A stretch of 64,000 bases of DNA from Candidatus Gottesmanbacteria bacterium (GTDB lineage: Bacteria; Patescibacteriota; Microgenomatia; UBA10105; UBA927), in contig OY970230.1 of the NCBI GenBank assembly GCA_963714095.1, positions 959,907-1,023,906 on the forward strand. The letters are read 5' to 3'. Position numbers and translations under genes: made by a program. This document shows positions 2,287 to 44,286 of this stretch, one piece after another. How positions within the stretch are numbered: position 1 is the first letter of the stretch; each line of letters opens with the position of its first letter. The notes under the pieces are model-generated. The model was given only the letters and a program-made list of their open reading frames with translations, searched no databases and was not told the DNA's origin.

Positions 2287-2860
2287 CCATCCAGGAAAGG
2301 GTAAGCTCACTGTTATTGCCGGCCCGATGTTTGCAGGCAAAACAACAAAACTCCTTACGCTCTTCAGTGTCCTTTCAAATTTGGGGTACAGCGTTCTCTG
2401 TTTTAAAGCGGAGGCAATGAGCAACGGCGGCATGGGACACACGAAATCTCATGACGAACGCCCGCTTCCGGTAATTTATATCGACATGAAAAAACCGGAA
2501 AAAATTTTGGAGTATGTCGGAGGTCAGGGAATTAAAAAGGTGATTATTGATGCCGTTCATTTTTTCCCGAAAATAGAATTCATCGCCGTTGTACAAAAAT
2601 TACTGACGCAGGGGATTGATGTGTATGTGAACGGACTTATTTATGATTACAGAAAAAAAGAATACGGTGCGACGAAGACTCTGATGAAGATGGCGGACGA
2701 ATGTATCGAGCAATTCAGTATCTGCGTTAAATGCGGAGGGAAAGCTGCCCACACTGAACGCATCGCCGGTCCCGCGCAGTTGTCCATCGGCACGACCGGC
2801 CCGGTTGCCGCAAAATATATAGCCGTCTGTGCCGCCTGCCACAAAATATATAAGGGATGA
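2273..2860 (+). CDS. tdk: thymidine kinase
   Basis: 'LTVIAGPMFAGKTT' P-loop, 'VIIDAVHFF' and a C-terminal CxxC...CxxC zinc ribbon are type II TK hallmarks. It overlaps tmk by 14 nt. Confidence 0.85.
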   Translation: MAKTNHPGKGKLTVIAGPMFAGKTTKLLTLFSVLSNLGYSVLCFKAEAMSNGGMGHTKSHDERPLPVIYIDMKKPEKILEYVGGQGIKKVIIDAVHFFPKIEFIAVVQKLLTQGIDVYVNGLIYDYRKKEYGATKTLMKMADECIEQFSICVKCGGKAAHTERIAGPAQLSIGTTGPVAAKYIAVCAACHKIYKG

Positions 2861-3722
2861 TAAATAAAGGACCGGACGGTCAGCAACTTCATTTTGAACA
2901 AAATTTCATTCTTATACCCGGTCCTTTCGGTGCCGGTAAAACACATACAGTTGGTTTGATTAATAATTTCTTTTTCGAGCATAATCTTTGGTACGGTAAA
3001 CCAGTTACGGATGCGGTGTATATAGAAGCTGCGCTTGAAGCAGATCACCGGTTTAACGAAGGCGTCAATCACATGCATGATAATCAGACGCGTCCGGAAA
3101 AACATGAACATTACCCGGGTGAGCCGAATTTACATTTTAGTGTGACAGGTCCGTACATTCCTCATTTTATGCATAAACATTTGTTTGAGGATTTGTCCCG
3201 TGGGTTTTTCGATAATTATTTGTTCCCGGTTGAATGGTCCGGCGGAGGGAATACAAATCCTGAAGGACATCCGGCATCGCACGCGGATTATTCATTTAAG
3301 ACTCAAGTAGAAGGAATGCAAAGCGGTATATATATGAAAGCGATTGGTTATCAAAAGTACTGCTCGTCATTCATCCACTTGTACCTGATGGTGGTGGTAG
3401 AGAGCAATTAAATGGTCGCCGTAAAGGAAGACGCGATCCTACACAAACCGAAATTGAATCAGGTATGGGCAGTTGGTGGATTCCAGATGCTGGCATGAAG
3501 ATAACAGGCCATAATGATTTTCCTGAGGTGATTCCGATTCTAGAAAATATGGGACTGGGAGGAAAAATTCACGTTATTCCTAATGACGGCGGAGAAGGAT
3601 ATGATAGGCAGCTTCGTAGAATTTTAGAAGAGAAAATCGGACCGATGTTGGACAAAGAAGGCCACCCATACTGGCCAGAAGGTAACCCACATACTTCAGC
3701 TCGCGAAAGGGATCGGCGATGA
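2857..3722 (+). pseudogene. novel P-loop NTPase paralog 1, disrupted by a +2 frameshift in a (TA)4 tract; fragments are 2857..3411 and 3465..3722
   Basis: Both fragments align colinearly to the intact paralog at 3719..4507: 'ADHRFNEGVNHMHDNQ' vs 'AHDHKFHEGRNHMHEGQ', and 'NDFPEVIPILENMGL' vs 'DDFPVFQHFLESHGV'. The frame switches at tatatatat (3327..3335). Removing one TA restores 'SGIYESDWVSKVLLVIHPL', which matches 'SGEFATEWVPRVLTVLHPS'. Confidence 0.7.
3327..3335 (+). repeat. (TA)4T dinucleotide tract at the frameshift point
   Basis: Read directly: 'ggtatatatatgaaag'. Dinucleotide repeats are classic slippage sites. Confidence 0.8.
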
Positions 3723-4507
3723 AAAATATCATTTTAGTCACCGGGCCGATTTCGGACGGGAAGTCATTTTTGATAACAGGTCTACGGGAGGAATTTGCGC
3801 GCCGTGGAATTCCGCAGTCGCTTGAGGTGATATCCGACGGTAAATTTTTACTGGATGCAGTCGCACATGACCATAAATTCCATGAAGGGCGCAATCACAT
3901 GCATGAAGGACAACAAATACCCACAGCACATTACCACGGCGACGGGTGGCAGAATAAATATGATTTTGTTGCAACGGGACGGGAAATACAGACATTTATG
4001 TTTGCCAATTTTTTTCGCCAGCTTGAATGGATTCGGGACTCTGGACAGATCGTTTTTGCAGAACTTGCGGGCGGTGATGGAGTGTATAAAAAAGACAATC
4101 CACTCGCGGCAAATGATTACTCATATGCCCGCATTGTCGATGGGTTGAATTCGGGTGAATTCGCTACGGAATGGGTACCCCGTGTTCTTACCGTTCTTCA
4201 TCCGTCGTCTGAATTTTCCGATCGGATTGCATGGAATAGGAATCGCCTCAGCCATCCGCCAACAGAAGATGAAATTATGGGGGGTCGCGCTTCGTGGGGA
4301 GTGCCTGAAATGGTTATGGGGAATACAGCTTACGATGATTTTCCCGTGTTTCAACATTTTTTGGAATCGCACGGCGTGAATCCATTCAATATCGAAACGA
4401 TTCACAATTCCGGCGGACCAGAATTGTACCAAGGTGCAATTGCTTCGTTGGAACGGCAGGGGATCGGGTTGCCCCCCGAACGACAAACAAGAGGAAAGGA
4501 GTTTTGA
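3719..4507 (+). CDS. novel P-loop NTPase/kinase-like protein, paralog 2 (intact) with a His-rich HxHKFHEGRNHMHEG motif
   Basis: Walker A 'LVTGPISDGKS' and Walker B-like 'IVFAELAGGDG'. The ATGA overlaps its neighbours on both sides. No known family recognised. Confidence 0.7.
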   Translation: MKNIILVTGPISDGKSFLITGLREEFARRGIPQSLEVISDGKFLLDAVAHDHKFHEGRNHMHEGQQIPTAHYHGDGWQNKYDFVATGREIQTFMFANFFRQLEWIRDSGQIVFAELAGGDGVYKKDNPLAANDYSYARIVDGLNSGEFATEWVPRVLTVLHPSSEFSDRIAWNRNRLSHPPTEDEIMGGRASWGVPEMVMGNTAYDDFPVFQHFLESHGVNPFNIETIHNSGGPELYQGAIASLERQGIGLPPERQTRGKEF

Positions 4508-5253
4508 TGAATATAAATACTATAGTTATTGCAGGAGCGCCTGCGTCAGGAAAATCAGTCGGAAAAGATATCATTTCAAATCAATTATCGCGTGATGGAT
4601 TTTATGTTATAGGAATGACAGACAGGATGGAATTAGAACGGGTCGTTGCAAACGAAATGCGCGGACGTGCACCTAATCCGAACGGATCAGTTGAAAGTGA
4701 AAATACAATTCTTCTTAACCCTTCGGCCGATCCAAAATTTTGGGGAATGGAATTTAAAACTGCGTGGGCACTCAATAGAGCGCATGAGGAGATGTTTGCG
4801 ACTATACGGGATTTAAGCCGTGAAAATGATCCGGGCAGGATTATTGTCGCAGAGATTGCATACGGCGAAGATGCTCCGTATCCCAGGGGTCCGCTTCGGC
4901 AATCGGCCGGGGAGTTTGTTGCCGCGTTTGTGAAACAGGGAATTTTACATCGTATGTTACTGTTGGATATACAGGCCTCTCATGAAACGCGTCGTGATTG
5001 GAATAAAAAGCGTACAGTTGGCCGTATCCCTTCAGAGGAATTTGATTTGTATTTTAAAGACGGAGGAGGATTCGGGAGTCAGGAAATACGGCTCCTCGGG
5101 GAGAGGTATCATTCTATTAAAAATGAAGGGATTACTCCTCGAGAATTCGCCAGTCTGCTGTATGGTGAGTATGATACATTTATTGTACCGGGAATTCGCG
5201 GGGAGGGGCAACGAACGAGCGAGGAATTTTTGAATCCCCGGACACGACGATGA
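4504..5253 (+). CDS. P-loop NTPase/kinase-like protein, divergent paralog 3
   Basis: Walker A 'IAGAPASGKS'. 'IVAEIAYGEDAPYPRGPL' aligns with 'VFAELAGGDGVYKKDNPL' of paralog 2. It is ATGA-coupled on both sides. Confidence 0.65.
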   Translation: MMNINTIVIAGAPASGKSVGKDIISNQLSRDGFYVIGMTDRMELERVVANEMRGRAPNPNGSVESENTILLNPSADPKFWGMEFKTAWALNRAHEEMFATIRDLSRENDPGRIIVAEIAYGEDAPYPRGPLRQSAGEFVAAFVKQGILHRMLLLDIQASHETRRDWNKKRTVGRIPSEEFDLYFKDGGGFGSQEIRLLGERYHSIKNEGITPREFASLLYGEYDTFIVPGIRGEGQRTSEEFLNPRTRR

Positions 5254-5840
5254 AAACAACAGTTTATCTAATTCGCCACGGGGCGTATGAAAACCCGAAG
5301 AAAATTTTGCACGCAAGGTTGCCGGGGTTTCCGTTATCCGCAGATGGCAAAAAGATGGCTGAGCGTATCGCGTCGTATTTATCACAAAAACCGATTGTTG
5401 CCGTATACAGCAGCCGTCTCTCTCGGGCCTATCAAACCGCGGAAATTATCGCAAAGAAGCATCATCTGCCGATAGTTACCGATCGCCGTCTTCTGGATAT
5501 CCGCACACCGCTGCAGGGGAAACCGAAGGCATATATTGACAGCATCGACTCGGAGTTTTATACAGAAGATCTTATCCGTGCCGGCGGGGAACGGCTGGAA
5601 GATGTATATACACGCATGGACAGGTTTATCCGTTCAAAAGTTCATTCCCATGCAGGACAATCGATCGTTGTCGTCTCCCACGGTGATCCAATTATGAGTA
5701 TTGCGACAAAATATGAAGGCAAACCCTTGCCGCGAAAATATTCGTTCAGGGAGTGGTATGTGCCGCAAGCGTCGGGATTCAAAATAGAGTTTGATGAAGA
5801 AACACGGAAAAAGAAGATTACTAAAATTCCGTTACCATGA
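5250..5840 (+). CDS. histidine phosphatase superfamily (phosphoglycerate-mutase-like) protein 1
   Basis: N-terminal 'LIRHGAYENP' carries the RHG catalytic motif. 'VVVSHGDPIMS' supplies the C-terminal His. Confidence 0.8.
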   Translation: MKTTVYLIRHGAYENPKKILHARLPGFPLSADGKKMAERIASYLSQKPIVAVYSSRLSRAYQTAEIIAKKHHLPIVTDRRLLDIRTPLQGKPKAYIDSIDSEFYTEDLIRAGGERLEDVYTRMDRFIRSKVHSHAGQSIVVVSHGDPIMSIATKYEGKPLPRKYSFREWYVPQASGFKIEFDEETRKKKITKIPLP

Positions 5841-6433
5841 AACAGACGACAGTGTACCTTATCCGCCACGGAGCATACGAAAATCCCAAACACGTAAACC
5901 CCGGCCGACTCCCCGGATTTCCGTTATCCGCTGAGGGGAAAAAACAAGCGTCCGTTTTGGCAGAATTATTTTCAAAAATACCTGTCAGCTCGATCTATGC
6001 AAGCCCGATCACGCGAACACTGGAAACTGCCACGATTATCGCGCAGAAACTTAATCTTTTGGTTGTGAGGGATGACCGTCTTTTGGAAGTACGGTCGCCG
6101 TTTAATGGAGCTCCGGTTGAGGTGGTAGATGCGCTTGCATATGCCGGTGAAATGTATACACCCAAATATTTTAAGCAGGGATTAGAACATATACCTCAAT
6201 TCTTCCGGCGTATGGATGACTGCTTGAAAGATATTGTTCAACGGGAGCAGGGGAAGCAGGTTGTTGTTGTATCCCACGGAGATCCGATGATGTCCGTGTG
6301 GTTCAGATATAACGGCCTTGACTGGTCGAAAGGGTTTGCACTTGGTAATTGGTTTGTCCCGATGGGAACCGGTTTTACAATAGTATTTGATACCAAAGGA
6401 AAGCCTCTACGTTTCACCAAATTTCCCGCTTGA
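5837..6433 (+). CDS. histidine phosphatase superfamily protein 2 (tandem paralog)
   Basis: 'LIRHGAYENPKH...VVVSHGDPMMS' is colinear with the preceding gene. It has an ATGA overlap. Confidence 0.8.
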   Translation: MKQTTVYLIRHGAYENPKHVNPGRLPGFPLSAEGKKQASVLAELFSKIPVSSIYASPITRTLETATIIAQKLNLLVVRDDRLLEVRSPFNGAPVEVVDALAYAGEMYTPKYFKQGLEHIPQFFRRMDDCLKDIVQREQGKQVVVVSHGDPMMSVWFRYNGLDWSKGFALGNWFVPMGTGFTIVFDTKGKPLRFTKFPA

Positions 6434-10165: not shown

Positions 10166-11026
10166 ATGGAAGAAATAACGTTACAGGCACTTTTGGAAGC
10201 AGGTTGTCATTTTGGTCACAAGGCCGAACGGTGGCATCCCAAGGCAGCGCAGTTTATTTATACAAAAAAAGACGGCATCCATATTATCGATTTGGCAAAA
10301 ACCAAAACGGGATTGGAAGCGGCGGCAGCGTTTGTTAAAGATCTGGCAAGTCAGGGTAAGGAAGTCGTGTTTGTAGGTACCAAGCGCCAGGCGTCAGGCG
10401 TCGTGAAACAGGAGGCAACAGCGGCAGGTGCCCCGTATTTTGTTGCGCGCTGGATCGGGGGATTCTTAACCAACTGGGACCAGATTAAGAAAAATATCGA
10501 TAAAATTCTCAAAATGGAAGCGGACAGGGCCAGTGGCGCCTGGAAAAAATTTCCCAAACACGAACAGGTGAAAATGGGGCGTTACTTGGACCGGATAAAA
10601 ATTTATTACGGCGGCGTTCTTACTATAAAAGCAATTCCGCAGGCGCTTGTGGTCGTTGACGTGAAAAAAGAAGAGCCGGCTGTGCGTGAGGGGAAACGTG
10701 TCGGCGTGCCGATTGTGGGCATGGTAGACACCAATTCCGATCCGACGCCTATTGATTATGTCATTCCTGCAAACGATGACGCCGTGGGATCCATTCAATA
10801 TATTATCCATATACTCGCGTCCGCGTATGGTGAAGGAAAAGCATTGTGGGAGAAGGCGAATAAGGAAATGGCAGATAAAGCCATAGCTGCGAAAACAGTT
10901 CCCGCACCGACAGCAACACCAAAACCGTCAGTTGCTTCAGAAAAACCAAAAACTGAAGTAAAAAAGGAAGACGTAGCGGCAGAGAGTAAACCAAAACGCG
11001 GCCGACCGAAGAAAAAAGCTTTATAA
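10166..11026 (+). CDS. rpsB: 30S ribosomal protein S2
   Basis: 'LLEAGCHFGHKAERWHPK' S2 signature. It has a K/A-rich C-terminal tail. Confidence 0.95.
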   Translation: MEEITLQALLEAGCHFGHKAERWHPKAAQFIYTKKDGIHIIDLAKTKTGLEAAAAFVKDLASQGKEVVFVGTKRQASGVVKQEATAAGAPYFVARWIGGFLTNWDQIKKNIDKILKMEADRASGAWKKFPKHEQVKMGRYLDRIKIYYGGVLTIKAIPQALVVVDVKKEEPAVREGKRVGVPIVGMVDTNSDPTPIDYVIPANDDAVGSIQYIIHILASAYGEGKALWEKANKEMADKAIAAKTVPAPTATPKPSVASEKPKTEVKKEDVAAESKPKRGRPKKKAL

Positions 11027-11033
11027 TTATCGT

Positions 11034-11489
11034 ATGCAGGTAAAACTTGAAGATATAAAAAAACTCCGTGAAGACACGAGTGCGGGCGTATCCGATTGCA
11101 GGCAGGCACTGGAAGACGCCAGTGGCGACTTTGCCAAAGCAAAAAAACTTATTATGGAGCGGGGGTTGGAAAAAGCCGCTAAAAAGGGCAACCGCGAAAC
11201 TTCGCAAGGCCTCATTGAATCGTATGTTCATGCCGGACGGGTTGGAGTTTTGGTTGAAGTCCGATGCGAAACAGATTTTGTGGCCAGGACCGATGATTTT
11301 AAGAAATTAGCCCATGAAATTGCCCTTCAGGTTGCATCCATGAATCCGAAAAACGTGAAAGAACTTTTAGCCAGTCCTTACATTCGCGACGCATCTCTTA
11401 CGGTAGAAGCCCTTGTTAAGCAGACCGTCGCCAAAGTCGGTGAAAATATCACGATCGCCAAATTTACCCGCATTGCGCTGGGGGAATAA
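11034..11489 (+). CDS. tsf: elongation factor Ts (short form)
   Basis: N-terminal UBA-like 'IKKLREDTSAGVSDCRQALE' and the 'VEVRCETDFVART' motif. It is only 151 aa. Confidence 0.9.
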   Translation: MQVKLEDIKKLREDTSAGVSDCRQALEDASGDFAKAKKLIMERGLEKAAKKGNRETSQGLIESYVHAGRVGVLVEVRCETDFVARTDDFKKLAHEIALQVASMNPKNVKELLASPYIRDASLTVEALVKQTVAKVGENITIAKFTRIALGE

Positions 11490-11508
11490 TCGTGATACTA
11501 TTTTTTTG

Positions 11509-12072
11509 ATGATCGAACCCACCATCAACACTGCGCGGGAGAAGATGAGAAAAGCTCTTGACGTGACGCGCATGGATCTTACTTCCATCCGATCAGGGCG
11601 CGCCACCCCCGCACTTGTTGAGAATATTTTTATCATGGCCTACGGCGGGACGCAACGGCTCCGTGTACAGGAATTGGCTACGATTACCACGATGGATTCA
11701 AAAACAATCGTTATCTCTCCGTACGATCCCTCGACGATTGCCGAAATTGAGAAGGGGATTCTGGCCGGAAGCAGCGGATTGACACCGGTTGTTGACAGGG
11801 ACGTGATCCGAATAACGATCCCGCTTTTATCCGAGGAACGGCGGCTCGAATATATAAAACTTGCAAAAGCAAAATTGGAAGGCGGCAGGGTTATGGTGCG
11901 TCAGATTCGGGGTGACGCAATGCGGGAGTTGAAAAAAGCGGAAGAGGCAAAAACGATCTCCGAGGACGAGCGCAAACACGGAGAACGGCTGGTGCAGGAA
12001 TTGACCGATGAAATGGTCGCCGAAATTGATACCATGGGGCAGAAAAAGGAAGCGGAATTGCTGCAAGTTTAG
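11509..12072 (+). CDS. frr: ribosome recycling factor
   Basis: RRF colinearity from the internal Met 'MIEPTINTAREKM'. The longer ORF from 11413 overlaps tsf and is not used. Confidence 0.85.
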   Translation: MIEPTINTAREKMRKALDVTRMDLTSIRSGRATPALVENIFIMAYGGTQRLRVQELATITTMDSKTIVISPYDPSTIAEIEKGILAGSSGLTPVVDRDVIRITIPLLSEERRLEYIKLAKAKLEGGRVMVRQIRGDAMRELKKAEEAKTISEDERKHGERLVQELTDEMVAEIDTMGQKKEAELLQV

Positions 12073-40291: not shown

Positions 40292-40981
40292 TTATAGTTG
40301 AACGGTCGCAATGACGGGATAATGGTCAGAGAATTTTATCCGTTCAACCTCGAGACCCGTGAGTTTACATTTTGATGTAAAGACGTAATCCAGTTGATGC
40401 TTCATAATGCCAAGGCGATGGGTTGCTAACCGCTTTGGTAACGTTTGAAAACCGTAGGTTTTCATAAGTTTGATGAGTTTTTTGTTGGGACGGATGGCGT
40501 GTAAATTAAAATCGCCGGTAATAATTGATGCATGTTTATTTGAGAAAAGTGTTTCTGCAATCATCCTGATTTGTTTGTATCTTGCTCGGTTGGCCGCAAG
40601 AAATACGAGATGCGTATTGGCGATAGTGAACGTTTTTTTACCCGAACGGAAGGTGAGAAGTAAACAGCTTTTTTCCATCGGATTCCCTAAAAACCGTTTT
40701 TCCATCGGGTGCACGCCCATGTGCAGTGTTTCATTTTTAATGACACGGACAGCTGCTTTCCGGTAGATTATGACGAGATGAAATATTTTTTTCTTAAATA
40801 TAAATGATTGTGCGGATCGATGCCCCCAGTCAGGGGAGAGAGCTTTGTAGAAATCGAGAAGCTTTGCTTCCGGAAATTCCTGCAAACAAATAATATCCGC
40901 GGTTTTTTGTTCATTAATCCATGAAAGAACCCCCTTGAGACGTTTCCCGAAGAAGATATTGTAGGTAATGACGCGCAGCAT
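40292..40981 (-). CDS. endonuclease/exonuclease/phosphatase (EEP) family protein
   Basis: 'ITYNIFFG' N-terminus and 'SDHYPV' C-terminal EEP motifs. The start is taken at 'MLRVITYN'. The upstream part of the listed ORF is discounted. Confidence 0.65.
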   Translation of the reverse strand: MLRVITYNIFFGKRLKGVLSWINEQKTADIICLQEFPEAKLLDFYKALSPDWGHRSAQSFIFKKKIFHLVIIYRKAAVRVIKNETLHMGVHPMEKRFLGNPMEKSCLLLTFRSGKKTFTIANTHLVFLAANRARYKQIRMIAETLFSNKHASIITGDFNLHAIRPNKKLIKLMKTYGFQTLPKRLATHRLGIMKHQLDYVFTSKCKLTGLEVERIKFSDHYPVIATVQL

Positions 40982-40982
40982 T

Positions 40983-41696
40983 TTATACCTGTGAGGCAGC
41001 AAGGGCCTCAGTGAGTTTTCCCATTTTTCCCTCAATGATATCGTCGAGATTGTGCCAGCTTTTTCCGATACGATGGTCGGTGACGCGGTTCTGCGGAAAG
41101 TTGTACGTCCGGATTTTTTCCGCCCGCATGCCGCGGCCGATGATACTGCGTGCGGCTCCGAGCGCGGTTGCTGCTTTCGTTTCCTCCAGCTCCCAGAGTT
41201 TTGCACGAAGCATGGAGAGAGCTACCTGCCGGTTCTGGTACTGGTCGCGTTCGGTTTGAGCTGATACGACGATTCCTGTCGGTTTATGGCGGATGCGGGC
41301 AGCGGAGCTTACTTTGTTAACGTTTTGGCCGCCTTTTCCTCCGCTTCTGAAGAAATCCCATTCGATGTCTTCGGGACGGATATAAATTTCAGTTTCAGGA
41401 ATATCGGGAAGGACCGCAATTGTTGCTGTAGACGTATGAATCCGGCCGGACCGTTCGGTTGAGGGAACCCGTTGCACACGGTGTGTACCGGCCTCATATT
41501 GTAATTTCGTGAATACGCCAGCTCCGCGAACGCGGATGGCAGTATCACTTATTTGTTCTACTTTCCACCCTGAAAGGTTCGCATACCGGATATACATACG
41601 CATGAGATCGGAAGCCCAAATCCGGGCTTCTTCGCCGCCGGGACCGGGCCTAAATTCCATAATCGTAACGTCAGGATTTACACTCGCCATAGGCAA
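40983..41696 (-). CDS. prfA: peptide chain release factor 1 lacking N-terminal domain 1
   Basis: 'PST' (PxT) codon-recognition motif, 'GGQ', and 'RTYNFPQNRVTDHRI'. The ORF begins at TTG/ATG immediately before the 'FRPGPGG' region. Confidence 0.8.
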   Translation of the reverse strand: MPMASVNPDVTIMEFRPGPGGEEARIWASDLMRMYIRYANLSGWKVEQISDTAIRVRGAGVFTKLQYEAGTHRVQRVPSTERSGRIHTSTATIAVLPDIPETEIYIRPEDIEWDFFRSGGKGGQNVNKVSSAARIRHKPTGIVVSAQTERDQYQNRQVALSMLRAKLWELEETKAATALGAARSIIGRGMRAEKIRTYNFPQNRVTDHRIGKSWHNLDDIIEGKMGKLTEALAASQV

Positions 41697-41699
41697 CGT

Positions 41700-42008
41700 C
41701 TACTTTAAACCCAAAAGCATATCTTTGAGGGATTTCGGATTGCGGAGGGATTCGGCGCGTTCCTGCTTCTTTTTCTTTCGCGCGGCAAGTACCGTTGATT
41801 GTGCCGCAGCGGCTTTCACCTTGGTCTGGAAGCGTTCCACGCGGCCCATGGTGTCGACGAACTTCATCTCTCCGGTAAAGAAAGGATGGCATTTGGCGCA
41901 GATTTCCACGCGCAGTTCTGGTTTGGTAGCTCCCACGGTGAACCTGTTACCGCAGGCGCACGTGACGACCGCATCCGGATACCATTGAGGGTGAATCGTT
42001 TTTTTCAT
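41700..42008 (-). CDS. rpmE: 50S ribosomal protein L31 with a ~36-aa K/A-rich C-terminal extension
   Basis: 'CACGN...[12 protein letters not shown]...GRVERF' L31 core. It is in frame with prfA across a single TAG. Confidence 0.8.
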
Positions 42009-42030
42009 ACAAGAAGCCTATTATATCATT

Positions 42031-43068
42031 TCATCGGTTCTTTTCAAAGATTGAGGCAAGGACTTCCTTTTTTTTGAGCCGTGTATGAGAAGGAACGGTG
42101 GATTGGGGAATAATGGGTATTGCGGCTTTTTCGATGGATTTTCCCAGCAGGATTAACTTCCGGATCGGGTGATAATGAATACGTCCTTCAGCAATATATA
42201 TTCCGCCGAAAATAAGGATTGCTCCTCCCAGAAAGGGAATCGTTATCGCTTCATGCAACAGGAGCGCGCCCATGACGGTGCCGACGATCGGATCCACGTA
42301 TGCAAACATTGCACTGTCCGTAGCGGAAATTTTGGACAGGCCCCACGCGAACAGACCATACCCGATGGTACTGCTGAATAGTGCTCCGTACCCAATACCC
42401 AGATACCCGCGCCAGTCAAGAAGTGCATACAGGTGGGGGTTATGCATAAATTCATATAACGCCAGAGGAAGAAAGCTGGCTGCTCCTACCAAAAATGCCC
42501 AAAAGGTAAATGCCCAAGGATTGTATTTACTGACGATTTTTTTGCCGACTATGGTTTGGCCAACTGCAGCAAATGTTGCAATGAGAAGGTAGATATTCCC
42601 CAGTATTGATCCGTCTACACCGTGCACGAGCAGCGGCTCAATGACGATAACGATTATTCCCAGTGTCCCCAGTATCATACCCAGGAATTTTTTCAATTTA
42701 AATGATTCATGCAGGAAAAGAAGTGCAAAAAATAGGGTGAGAATCGGTTGGGCACTTGATATGACAGGGGAATTGATGGAGTAGGTGAGGTTAAGCCCCC
42801 AAAAGAAAAAGATGATGTTGACGGTGATTCCCAAAAAGCCATAAAGAAAAAGTAGTATGCCGTCGCGCCTGTTGGCCAATGGGAGCGAGACTTTTTTGCC
42901 GATCACCAAAAGGATCATGATTGCGCCTAAAAAAAACCGCCAGAATGCAAGGGTAAACGGGGGAATATTCTTTAAACTGAGTTTAAATATCGCCGCCGCC
43001 GCGCCCCAGATGATGTTGGCGATAATGAGTGCCAAAAAAGCCTTTTGGACGGTGTTCAACGATTTCAT
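42031..43068 (-). CDS. EamA/DMT-family transporter
   Basis: 10 TM helices with an EamA repeat architecture. Confidence 0.65.
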   Translation of the reverse strand: MKSLNTVQKAFLALIIANIIWGAAAAIFKLSLKNIPPFTLAFWRFFLGAIMILLVIGKKVSLPLANRRDGILLFLYGFLGITVNIIFFFWGLNLTYSINSPVISSAQPILTLFFALLFLHESFKLKKFLGMILGTLGIIVIVIEPLLVHGVDGSILGNIYLLIATFAAVGQTIVGKKIVSKYNPWAFTFWAFLVGAASFLPLALYEFMHNPHLYALLDWRGYLGIGYGALFSSTIGYGLFAWGLSKISATDSAMFAYVDPIVGTVMGALLLHEAITIPFLGGAILIFGGIYIAEGRIHYHPIRKLILLGKSIEKAAIPIIPQSTVPSHTRLKKKEVLASIFEKNR

Positions 43069-43071
43069 GGG

Positions 43072-44286
43072 TCAGTTTGACTGAAGCATAAGAATGACGT
43101 CATCAACCGTTAATTCTTTTTGTTCTTTTGTAGCCATGTTTTTCAGTTTCACCTTGTTCCGTTTCACTTCATCCGGCCCGAAGATAACGATATACGGTAT
43201 TCTTTTTTTATCGGCATATTTCAGCTGCTTTTCCAGCTTTGCGCCGGAATCGACGTATATCTCAGCGTTGAGTCCTGCGCGGCGCAGTTTTGTCGTGAGT
43301 TCAAGTGAACTGCCCAGCTGCTCGGGAGAGAAAATAGCCACGAGTACTTGTGTGACGGTAGAACGCGTGGAAAGCAACTTAAATTCCTCCATGGCCTCCA
43401 TGATGCGGTCAAATCCGAATGCGATACCTACGGCCGGCAAATCCCTGCCGGAAAATTGGCTGATGAGTTTGTCATAGCGCCCGCCACCCGCAAGCGATCC
43501 GCTTGTGTAGGCTGCCGCCTTAAGTTCAAATATCGTACTCGTATAATAATCCAGACCTCTGGCCAAAAATCGGTTAAACCGGAAATCCGTATCCTCTTTA
43601 TATCCAAGCCGCTTGAGCGCTTCAAAAATTTTCCAGATACGTTCTGTCGCGCCCATATTTTTCAGTGACGTTAAAAGCTCTTGCGGATTTTTCCGACCTG
43701 CTGTTGCAAGTTCATCAAGGACAGCATCGACGCCGATTTTATCAATCTTATCAATGGAGGATATTTCCTTTTTGGTAAGTTTAAGTCCGTCGAAAATTGT
43801 ACGGTCATTTATATCCATGGTAATGCCGGAAAAGCCGAGCTGTTTAAACGCGGAAAGTGTGCAGTCTATAATTTCCGCGTCAGCCAGTGGCGAATCAGAT
43901 CCTACCGTATCGATATCGCATTGCAGGAATTCGCGGAATCTCCCTTTTTGTGTATTTTCCGCGCGCCAAACCGGCTGGATTTGATAGCGTTTAAAAGGTT
44001 TTGGAAGATCCGGATATTGCGCAACCACCCGGGAGAGTGGAACGGTCTGGTCATACCGGAGTCCGACGTTCCGTTTCCCGTTATCGCGGAAAAGGTACAA
44101 AAGTTTATCCGCCTCACCTCCGTATTTGCCCATGAGCGTTTCGGCGTATTCCAGTGCCGGTGTTTCAAGAGGATCAAATCCGTACCGTTCAAACACCGTC
44201 CTGATTTTTCCCACTACAACCTGCCGCGCGCTAGCGGCAGAAGGAAGGAAATCACGGAATCCCTTGAGTGTTTGTGCTTTGATCAT
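43072..44286 (-). CDS. hisS: histidyl-tRNA synthetase
   Basis: Class II motifs and the 'RGLDYY' HisRS signature. Confidence 0.9.
   Translation of the reverse strand: MIKAQTLKGFRDFLPSAASARQVVVGKIRTVFERYGFDPLETPALEYAETLMGKYGGEADKLLYLFRDNGKRNVGLRYDQTVPLSRVVAQYPDLPKPFKRYQIQPVWRAENTQKGRFREFLQCDIDTVGSDSPLADAEIIDCTLSAFKQLGFSGITMDINDRTIFDGLKLTKKEISSIDKIDKIGVDAVLDELATAGRKNPQELLTSLKNMGATERIWKIFEALKRLGYKEDTDFRFNRFLARGLDYYTSTIFELKAAAYTSGSLAGGGRYDKLISQFSGRDLPAVGIAFGFDRIMEAMEEFKLLSTRSTVTQVLVAIFSPEQLGSSLELTTKLRRAGLNAEIYVDSGAKLEKQLKYADKKRIPYIVIFGPDEVKRNKVKLKNMATKEQKELTVDDVILMLQSN

Follow-up and report, generated by a model that had tools for sequence, protein, structure and literature searches.

A natural release factor RF1 without domain 1 encoded directly behind rpmE in Candidatus Gottesmanbacteria

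Translation termination is considered here from a single locus, found in a 64-kb stretch of DNA from a Candidatus Gottesmanbacteria bacterium (hereafter the window). At this locus rpmE, the gene of ribosomal protein bL31, is immediately followed by a prfA gene whose product, release factor RF1, has no domain 1. Is this RF1 a genuinely short factor, or is it the second part of a longer protein that begins in rpmE? The question arises because the two open reading frames (ORFs) are in the same frame, positions 41696 and 42008 both being 2 mod 3, and because the stop codon between them is UAG, which RF1 itself decodes. The original prediction, made from the sequence of this DNA, had seen here an invitation to a model of autoregulatory read-through, with a truly truncated RF1 beside a tailed L31 as the fallback. 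The comparison with relatives presented below supports the fallback. In the explanation that we hold to be very probable, rpmE and prfA are separate cistrons of one operon and prfA encodes a mini-RF1 made of domains 2, 3, and 4 only.

The product of prfA is an RF1 whose N-terminal part is missing. Indeed, the Pfam PCRF model is matched only over its positions 101-194 of 194, and the NCBIfam RF1 models (TIGR00019 and NF001859) are matched from position 105 or 110 onward, in agreement with the predicted absence of a domain 1 of about 105 amino acids (aa). The Pfam RF-1 domain (PF00472) is complete (positions 2-116 of 116, E=1.1e-36), and the PST, GGQ, and RTYNFPQ motifs are all in place, as had been read from the translation. 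The protein scores 314 and 311 bits with the RF1 models versus 202 bits with the RF2 models. Its alignment spans residues 112-344 of Escherichia coli RF1 and residues 86-319 of Thermotoga maritima RF1, with E=6e-73 to RF1 structures. A profile hidden Markov model covering domain 1 and the EIRAGTGGDEA anchor, built from 76 full-length RF1 representatives, retrieves from the short RF1 only the shared anchor (positions 112-125). Because rpmE ends 9 nucleotides (nt) upstream, there is no room for domain 1 before prfA. An AlphaFold model of moderate quality (mean predicted local distance difference test, pLDDT, of 68; predicted template modelling score, pTM, of 0.44) has ribosome-bound RF1 chains as its top matches; this prediction confirms the RF1 fold, and little beyond that.

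The truncation, which had been called unusual, is shared by a whole lineage. A database protein of 235 aa (P0001), encoded on a contig of 1,088,247 bp, is identical to the RF1 of the window. Identity is 91% with the RF1 of the next relative, whose closed chromosome (OY969569.1) has 995 kb, and the closest proteins and loci come from metagenome-assembled genomes of Candidatus Gottesmanbacteria (Microgenomates, in the Patescibacteria or Candidate Phyla Radiation, CPR). The best 120 database matches, at 78-100% identity, are all 225-253 aa long. When 1.84 billion cluster representatives were searched, the RF1s of Gottesmanbacteria fell into one 50%-identity cluster with a representative of 235 aa, and the score falls from 448 to 333 bits at the next-best cluster. 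The N-terminus M-N-x-D-[IV]-A-I-[LM]-E-F-R is conserved in Gottesmanbacteria, with 3-5 additional residues at the start (MASVNPD...) in the RF1s of the window and of the relatives closest to it. Ratios of nonsynonymous to synonymous substitutions (dN/dS) calculated against the gene of the window are 0.03-0.07, the synonymous sites being saturated. The short RF1 is therefore under strong purifying selection, and the lengths of the best 120 homologues together with these ratios led us to reject an artefact of assembly or annotation, or a pseudogene. A natural RF1 of 232-235 aa without domain 1, conserved across a CPR lineage, is confirmed.

Loss of domain 1 is graded among related RF1s. An ordinary RF1 of about 360 aa covers positions 1-125 of the domain-1 profile. 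Four proteins of 303-331 aa (P0122, P0125, P0127, and P0154) cover positions from about 45 to 125, P0128 (269 aa) covers 82-125, the Amesbacteria protein P0123 (256 aa) covers 104-125, and P0126 and P0136 (232 and 242 aa) cover 110-125, down to the Gottesmanbacteria form of 235 aa, in which positions 112-125, that is the anchor only, are left. Every RF1 of this series whose locus was examined (the P0127 and P0154 loci were left out) lies directly behind rpmE. The adjacency of rpmE and prfA is found at 39 of 39 Gottesmanbacteria loci and at six other Patescibacteria loci. In a sister lineage (locus L049), the gene order hisS-eamA-rpmE-prfA is identical to that of the window and RF1 has 303 aa. 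The other short RF1s (232-269 aa) also follow rpmE directly. Since they adjoin this gene, an exon cannot have been missed; the short RF1s are therefore not fragments, and the gene of the window is the positional orthologue of prfA. No description of a short RF1 in CPR bacteria was found in full-text searches of the literature, and this conserved domain-1-less RF1, with its graded intermediates, is new within the known family of release factors.

What such a protein does can be proposed from its conserved parts. Going by homology, recognition of UAA and UAG would fall to the PST loop in the domain 2/4 unit, and hydrolysis of peptidyl-tRNA to the GGQ loop of domain 3, so that the short RF1 is expected to release peptides at these two codons. 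Neither codon recognition nor peptide release requires domain 1, and a truncated RF1 works in vivo (PMC1586002). This domain bridges the N-terminal domain of L11 and RF3 (PMC3677378) and is needed to interact with RF3 and to stimulate it (PMC1586002). With domain 1 lost, the factor would have to bind to the ribosome and leave it without the L11 and RF3 contacts. Considering the published dependence of the RF3 interaction on domain 1 and the absence of prfC from small genomes (PMC1586002), the lineage is predicted to have no RF3. RF1 activity is required in any case, because TAG terminates 12 of the 80 long ORFs of the window (15%). No second full-length prfA and no gene for RF2, RF3, PrmC, or L11 is present in the 64-kb window. 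We infer that the short RF1 is the only RF1 of the organism.

Several points weigh against this assignment. First, the protein stays under the equivalog cut-offs of the RF1 models (314.4 against 400 and 311 against 423.25 bits), which is explained by the loss of domain 1. Second, one homologue is named just "release factor-like protein" by the NCBI annotation pipeline. Third, when compared with the solved RF1s of T. maritima, E. coli, and Thermus thermophilus, domain 2 has a gap of about 10 aa; it is located at window positions 41540-41570 (minus strand), around residues 41-56, between the WKVE and VRG segments. Finally, the search for a second full-length prfA covered the 64-kb window, and the claim of a sole RF1 concerns the whole genome.

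In a first alternative, the short RF1 would be a specialised paralogue working in rescue or quality control, like PrfH or ArfB, with a canonical RF1 encoded elsewhere in the genome. Other domain-1-less homologues such as PrfH are indeed accessory factors (PMC1586002), and both the low equivalog scores and the extent of the search fit with this idea. However, the short RF1 occupies the conserved rpmE-prfA position, where graded intermediates connect it to ordinary RF1. It keeps the PxT motif and, unlike ArfB, the entire codon-reading domain 2/4 unit. The Gottesmanbacteria RF1s make up one tight cluster, separated from the next by the drop in score given above, and each Gottesmanbacteria record has one short-RF1 locus, as found in a scan of GTDB genomes with patterns specific to the short form. 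Membership in the known accessory families was ruled out by model scores. The PrfH model (TIGR03072), matched in the GGQ region only, gives 67.8 bits where the cut-off is 166.65, and no RtcB-type partner gene is present; the ArfB model matches residues 103-137 only, with 52 bits where the cut-off is 100, in a protein with full domains 2 and 4. A paralogue is therefore, in our view, unlikely.

RF2 was looked at in parallel. Seven of the loci collected from GTDB (L040-L046) carry full-length RF2 genes of other Patescibacteria and of WWE3, in single open frames, and a query with the L040 RF2, aimed at the RF2 of Gottesmanbacteria, returned only Roizmanbacteria-like RF2s, full-length at 332-354 aa. 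In their GGQ domains, the short RF1 (EDIEWDFFRSGGKGGQNVNKVSSA..., window 41200-41400) and the RF2s of other Microgenomates (EDIEWDFFR[AS]GGHGGQNVNKVS[ST]A..., L040-L043) are unusually alike. This likeness hints that the two factors have co-evolved, in a lineage-specific way, with the ribosome or PrmC.

The features of the locus are collected in Table 1. A separation of the two ORFs by TAG plus one codon had been described. The TTG at 41696 on which this count was based does exist, and it would give an ORF of 237 aa. However, the true start is by homology the ATG at 41690, as in P0001, giving 235 aa and leaving TAG plus three codons (ACG, TTG, CCT) between the cistrons. The K/A-rich tail of L31 is also present, though with a length of 39 aa, not 36. 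It was correct that no prmC follows prfA: the next gene belongs to the endonuclease/exonuclease/phosphatase (EEP) family, and its ATG lies 1 nt past the prfA stop (junction TAAAATG).

Table 1. Features of the rpmE-prfA locus in the window, and hairpins in the rpmE-prfA spacers of relatives (positions within the named locus).
Feature	Position	Strand	Remarks
hisS, upstream of the eamA gene	43072-44286		order hisS-eamA-rpmE-prfA
EamA-family transporter gene, upstream	42031-43068	-	Pfam
Promoter-like site (TTGAAA, 16-nt spacer, TG-extended TATAAT)	42020-42047	-	11 nt 5' of the rpmE ATG; consensus match only
rpmE, ribosomal protein bL31, 102 aa	41700-42008	-	stop TAG at 41700-41702; Pfam Ribosomal_L31 (PF01197), E=6.5e-27
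C-terminal extension of L31, residues 64-102, K/A-rich, 39 aa	41703-41819	-	outside the L31 profile
Spacer of 9 nt (ACG TTG CCT), rpmE TAG to prfA ATG	41691-41699	-	direct reading; without Shine-Dalgarno-like sequence
prfA, RF1 without domain 1, 235 aa from ATG 41690	40983-41690	-	stop TAA at 40983-40985
PST tripeptide (RF1-type PxT stop-codon "anticodon"), RF1 residues 76-78	41457-41465	-	direct reading; aligned with PVT of T. maritima RF1
GGQ peptidyl-tRNA hydrolysis motif, RF1 residues 120-122	41325-41333	-	direct reading; invariant in the RF1 alignment
RTYNFPQ motif of RF1	41091-41111	-	direct reading
EEP-family gene, downstream	40292-40981	-	Pfam Exo_endo_phos, E=4e-11; not prmC
Hairpin then T-run abutting the prfA ATG	L028 3921-3994		
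Hairpin then T-run abutting the prfA ATG	L029 364-446		
Hairpin then T-run abutting the prfA ATG	L030 3922-4003		
Hairpin then T-run abutting the prfA ATG	L033 3923-4003		
Spacer hairpins, further loci			L004, L008, L011, L015, L038

Expression of the two cistrons can be outlined from this layout. Upstream of rpmE, the hexamers of the promoter-like site have 11 of 12 consensus matches in addition to the TG extension, and a counterpart is found before rpmE in a relative (L028, 3583-3611). No second promoter-like site and no Shine-Dalgarno sequence is found between rpmE and prfA. Because there is no internal promoter-like site and the next gene begins 1 nt past the prfA stop, an rpmE-prfA-EEP operon is proposed, probably transcribed from the site at 42047-42020. 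rpmE would then be translated to an L31 with its lineage-specific tail, with termination at TAG. As prfA has no Shine-Dalgarno sequence, its translation would most likely depend on termination-reinitiation coupling, from the ATG located 9 nt downstream. Before rpmE itself there is no Shine-Dalgarno sequence either, and the extended -10 site is about 10-11 nt from the ATG both in the window and in L028, which suggests that the rpmE mRNA may be leaderless or nearly so. On the opposite strand, a 159-aa ORF (41509-41988, plus strand) runs over rpmE and prfA; it has no "homologue" other than the strand opposite to rpmE and prfA in the Amesbacteria locus L047, and it is therefore a shadow ORF and not a gene.

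Junctions were compared in 46 loci from GTDB species genomes, 39 of Gottesmanbacteria and the seven RF2 loci of other lineages. In all 39 Gottesmanbacteria loci reaching far enough upstream, an rpmE with the same tail precedes the short prfA. The distance between the genes varies widely, from an overlap of 4 nt (ATGA) up to about 420 nt. Five loci have ATGA or TAATG overlaps, out of frame, many have short spacers, spacers of 55-110 nt are found in many others, two loci have about 215 nt, and L037 has about 420 nt. The stop codon of rpmE is TAG in 26 loci, TAA in 10, and TGA in 3. Some spacers have a history of their own. That of L037 (about 3620-3980) contains an inserted 119-aa gene of the 23S_rRNA_IVP family (four-helix bundle), flanked by inverted 'caaatcacaaatctcaaatcacaa' repeats. 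In L006 (4010-4142) and L022 (3884-4006), about 55 nt of the prfA 5' end are present a second time in direct orientation, with 81% and 91% identity to the real start; next comes a common insert of about 70-80 nt (CTTGACTGGTT...AACCATCAATGC), just 5' of the intact prfA. An Rfam scan of these two loci gave only a tRNA and matched no family to this arrangement, which may have been left behind by recombination or by an insertion.

The frequency of TAG at the end of rpmE leads to a second alternative, which is compatible with the two-cistron operon: RF1 could be sensed without any fusion, the RF1-dependent dwell time of the ribosome at the rpmE UAG setting the expression of prfA. Such sensing would act through reinitiation where spacers are short and through a hairpin or terminator held open where they are long. 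TAG ends rpmE in 67% of Gottesmanbacteria and in the two nearest outgroups (L047 and L049), whereas its share is about 12% for six genes of the neighbourhood and 15% across the window. Parsimony on a neighbour-joining tree makes this TAG ancestral, despite saturated synonymous sites. Many of the longer spacers form strong hairpins 0-13 nt past the rpmE stop, with folding free energies (dG) down to -38 kcal/mol and z-scores down to -8; these look like putative terminators or attenuators, and in L028, L029, L030, and L033 the hairpin and a T-run abut the prfA ATG. However, on the same tree TAG gave way to TAA or TGA on at least 10 occasions, each confined to one species or a pair, and was never regained. 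The architecture of the spacer is not conserved, and overlapping ATGA junctions have TGA as the stop. Moreover, related lineages are not independent samples, and the control gene eamA also has 39% TAG. Hairpins shortly after stop codons are what ordinary terminators look like, and with the 9-nt spacer of the window a paused ribosome would cover the prfA start rather than expose it. The whole pattern fits with ordinary terminators plus an inherited TAG, and sensing at the rpmE stop appears improbable. The same holds for a broader proposal, in which a class-level branch of Patescibacteria would have a domain-1-less RF1 as sole factor for UAA and UAG, would do without the L11-RF1-RF3 bridge, and would use the rpmE UAG as a sensor of RF1 level via reinitiation or an attenuator hairpin, not via a fusion; taken as a whole, we regard it as a long shot.

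Far less survives of programmed read-through. According to this model, scarcity of RF1 would cause UAG read-through and yield a 341-aa L31-RF1 fusion (the predicted length is correct), in which L31 replaces domain 1, with negative autoregulation like that of the RF2 frameshift; the junction peptide would read GLK-X-TLPMASVNPDVTIMEFR (…GLK-X-TLPMASVNPD…). The layout of the window, with a shared frame, three sense codons after TAG, and a stop codon decoded by RF1, is what suggested it, and an in-frame layout free of further stops also occurs in L003, L017, L020, and L047. Alignment of the loci of relatives shows instead that spacing and frame vary, that extra in-frame stops are present, and that TAA or TGA may replace TAG; variable spacing and frame had been named with the original prediction as grounds for its refutation. 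The frame is shared in 11 of 39 loci versus 13 by chance. A further in-frame stop is absent in only four (the window, L003, L017, and L020), and in L020 the rpmE stop is TAA; five loci overlap out of frame. The common frame in the window is a coincidence, unremarkable since its chance is 1 in 3 and a stop-free spacer of three codons is nothing unusual. When the 341-aa fusion was used as a query against 5.8 billion proteins, neither a fusion nor an orthologue with a sense codon in place of the stop was found: the best 120 matches were all 225-256 aa, and a true fusion would have outscored every one of them. Nor was the fused form found among the 1.84 billion cluster representatives.

L31 itself matches the L31 models over their full length, the tail being extra. 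The Pfam model (PF01197) covers residues 1-63 of the protein (model positions 1-63 of 65), the NCBIfam equivalog (NF000612) is passed with 92.4 bits for a cut-off of 70, and the four cysteines of a type A zinc-binding bL31 (C17, C19, C37, and C40) can be read from the translation. The C-terminus, SLK[ED]ML[ML]G[LI]K followed by the stop, is conserved across Gottesmanbacteria, with the end at the same ...GLK residue whether TAG, TAA, or TGA comes next. The junction had been thought to resemble the end of RF1 domain 1, but the resemblance is not significant: the domain-1 profile gives only 2.3 bits with the tail, that is no similarity, and gains only 1.4 bits when L31 and the junction are added to the RF1 sequence. 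Tail and truncation also occur independently. Homologous tails (PKT[IL]REM[LF]) are found in L047 and L049, where in the latter the tailed L31 stands beside a 303-aa RF1 keeping about half of domain 1, and L050 has a 72-aa L31 without tail overlapping a 232-aa RF1. On these grounds we rejected the idea that the tail is what remains of domain 1 or takes its place; it predates the complete loss of this domain and is independent of it. No gene for a CUA-anticodon (suppressor) tRNA was found in the window. Read-through is, on this comparison of sequences, refuted as a conserved mechanism, and we give it almost no credence. The idea of TAG as a sense codon was rejected on the identical L31 end before TAA or TGA, the 12 of 80 ORFs ending in TAG, and the lack of a CUA tRNA gene in the window.

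Other features of the window can be mentioned. A second trimmed translation factor, EF-Ts (11034-11489, plus strand), has 151 aa and matches only positions 1-76 of 204 of the EF_TS model; a similar form of 149 aa occurs in L052. In the window it is flanked by the genes of S2 (10166-11026) and of the ribosome recycling factor RRF (11413-12072). At 1040-2860 and 5250-6433 (plus strand), there are two tandem thymidylate-kinase-family genes followed by a thymidine kinase gene and, separately, two tandem histidine-phosphatase-family genes. Several ORFs at 2857-5253 have no Pfam match.

The short RF1 bears on how far the termination apparatus of bacteria can be reduced. From engineered deletions, domain 1 of class-I release factors had been deemed non-essential; here, a natural deletion is kept under strong selection in many species. 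Together with the related lineages that show intermediate stages, it offers a natural system for the roles of domain 1, of the L11 contact, and of RF3 recycling. There is also a practical side. As curated RF1 models miss the short RF1 or label it "release factor-like", inferences of genome completeness or genetic code in CPR bacteria could wrongly call RF1 absent.

Finally, the locus can be compared with known systems. With the +1 frameshift at the in-frame UGA of the RF2 gene (prfB), it shares the idea that a factor's own cognate stop senses its level, since UAG is frequent at the end of rpmE. Conservation of the RF2 recoding site among bacteria is widely reported. At rpmE-prfA, in contrast, neither the frame nor the spacing nor the stop codon is constant, and no fused product was found. 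In the hemA-prfA operon of Salmonella and E. coli, autogenous control of prfA through the stop codon of the upstream gene was reportedly proposed by Elliott in 1989. There, prfA likewise lies just downstream of a gene whose termination might be coupled to it; the upstream gene is a different one. The RtcB-linked PrfH (RF-H) is also a class-I homologue that naturally has GGQ and no domain 1 (PMC1586002), but the short RF1 has an RF1-type PxT motif and the gene upstream is rpmE, not an RtcB-like ligase gene. Canonical RF1s (T. maritima 1RQ0, E. coli, and T. thermophilus) have 45-55% identity with the short RF1 over domains 2, 3, and 4, with the PxT, GGQ, and RTYNFPQ region in common, and RF1 chains are its top matches in sequence and in fold. 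They differ by having domain 1 (about 105 aa) and the stretch of about 10 aa of domain 2, both missing from the short RF1, which also remains under the equivalog cut-offs and whose gene is not followed by prmC. The closest counterparts in architecture are the laboratory domain-1 deletion mutants of E. coli RF1 and RF2 (work of Mora et al. and Vestergaard et al., summarised in PMC1586002). These have the same architecture as the short RF1. However, they were engineered, in a host with RF3, whereas the deletion described here occurs in nature, where it has become fixed and is conserved throughout a large lineage.

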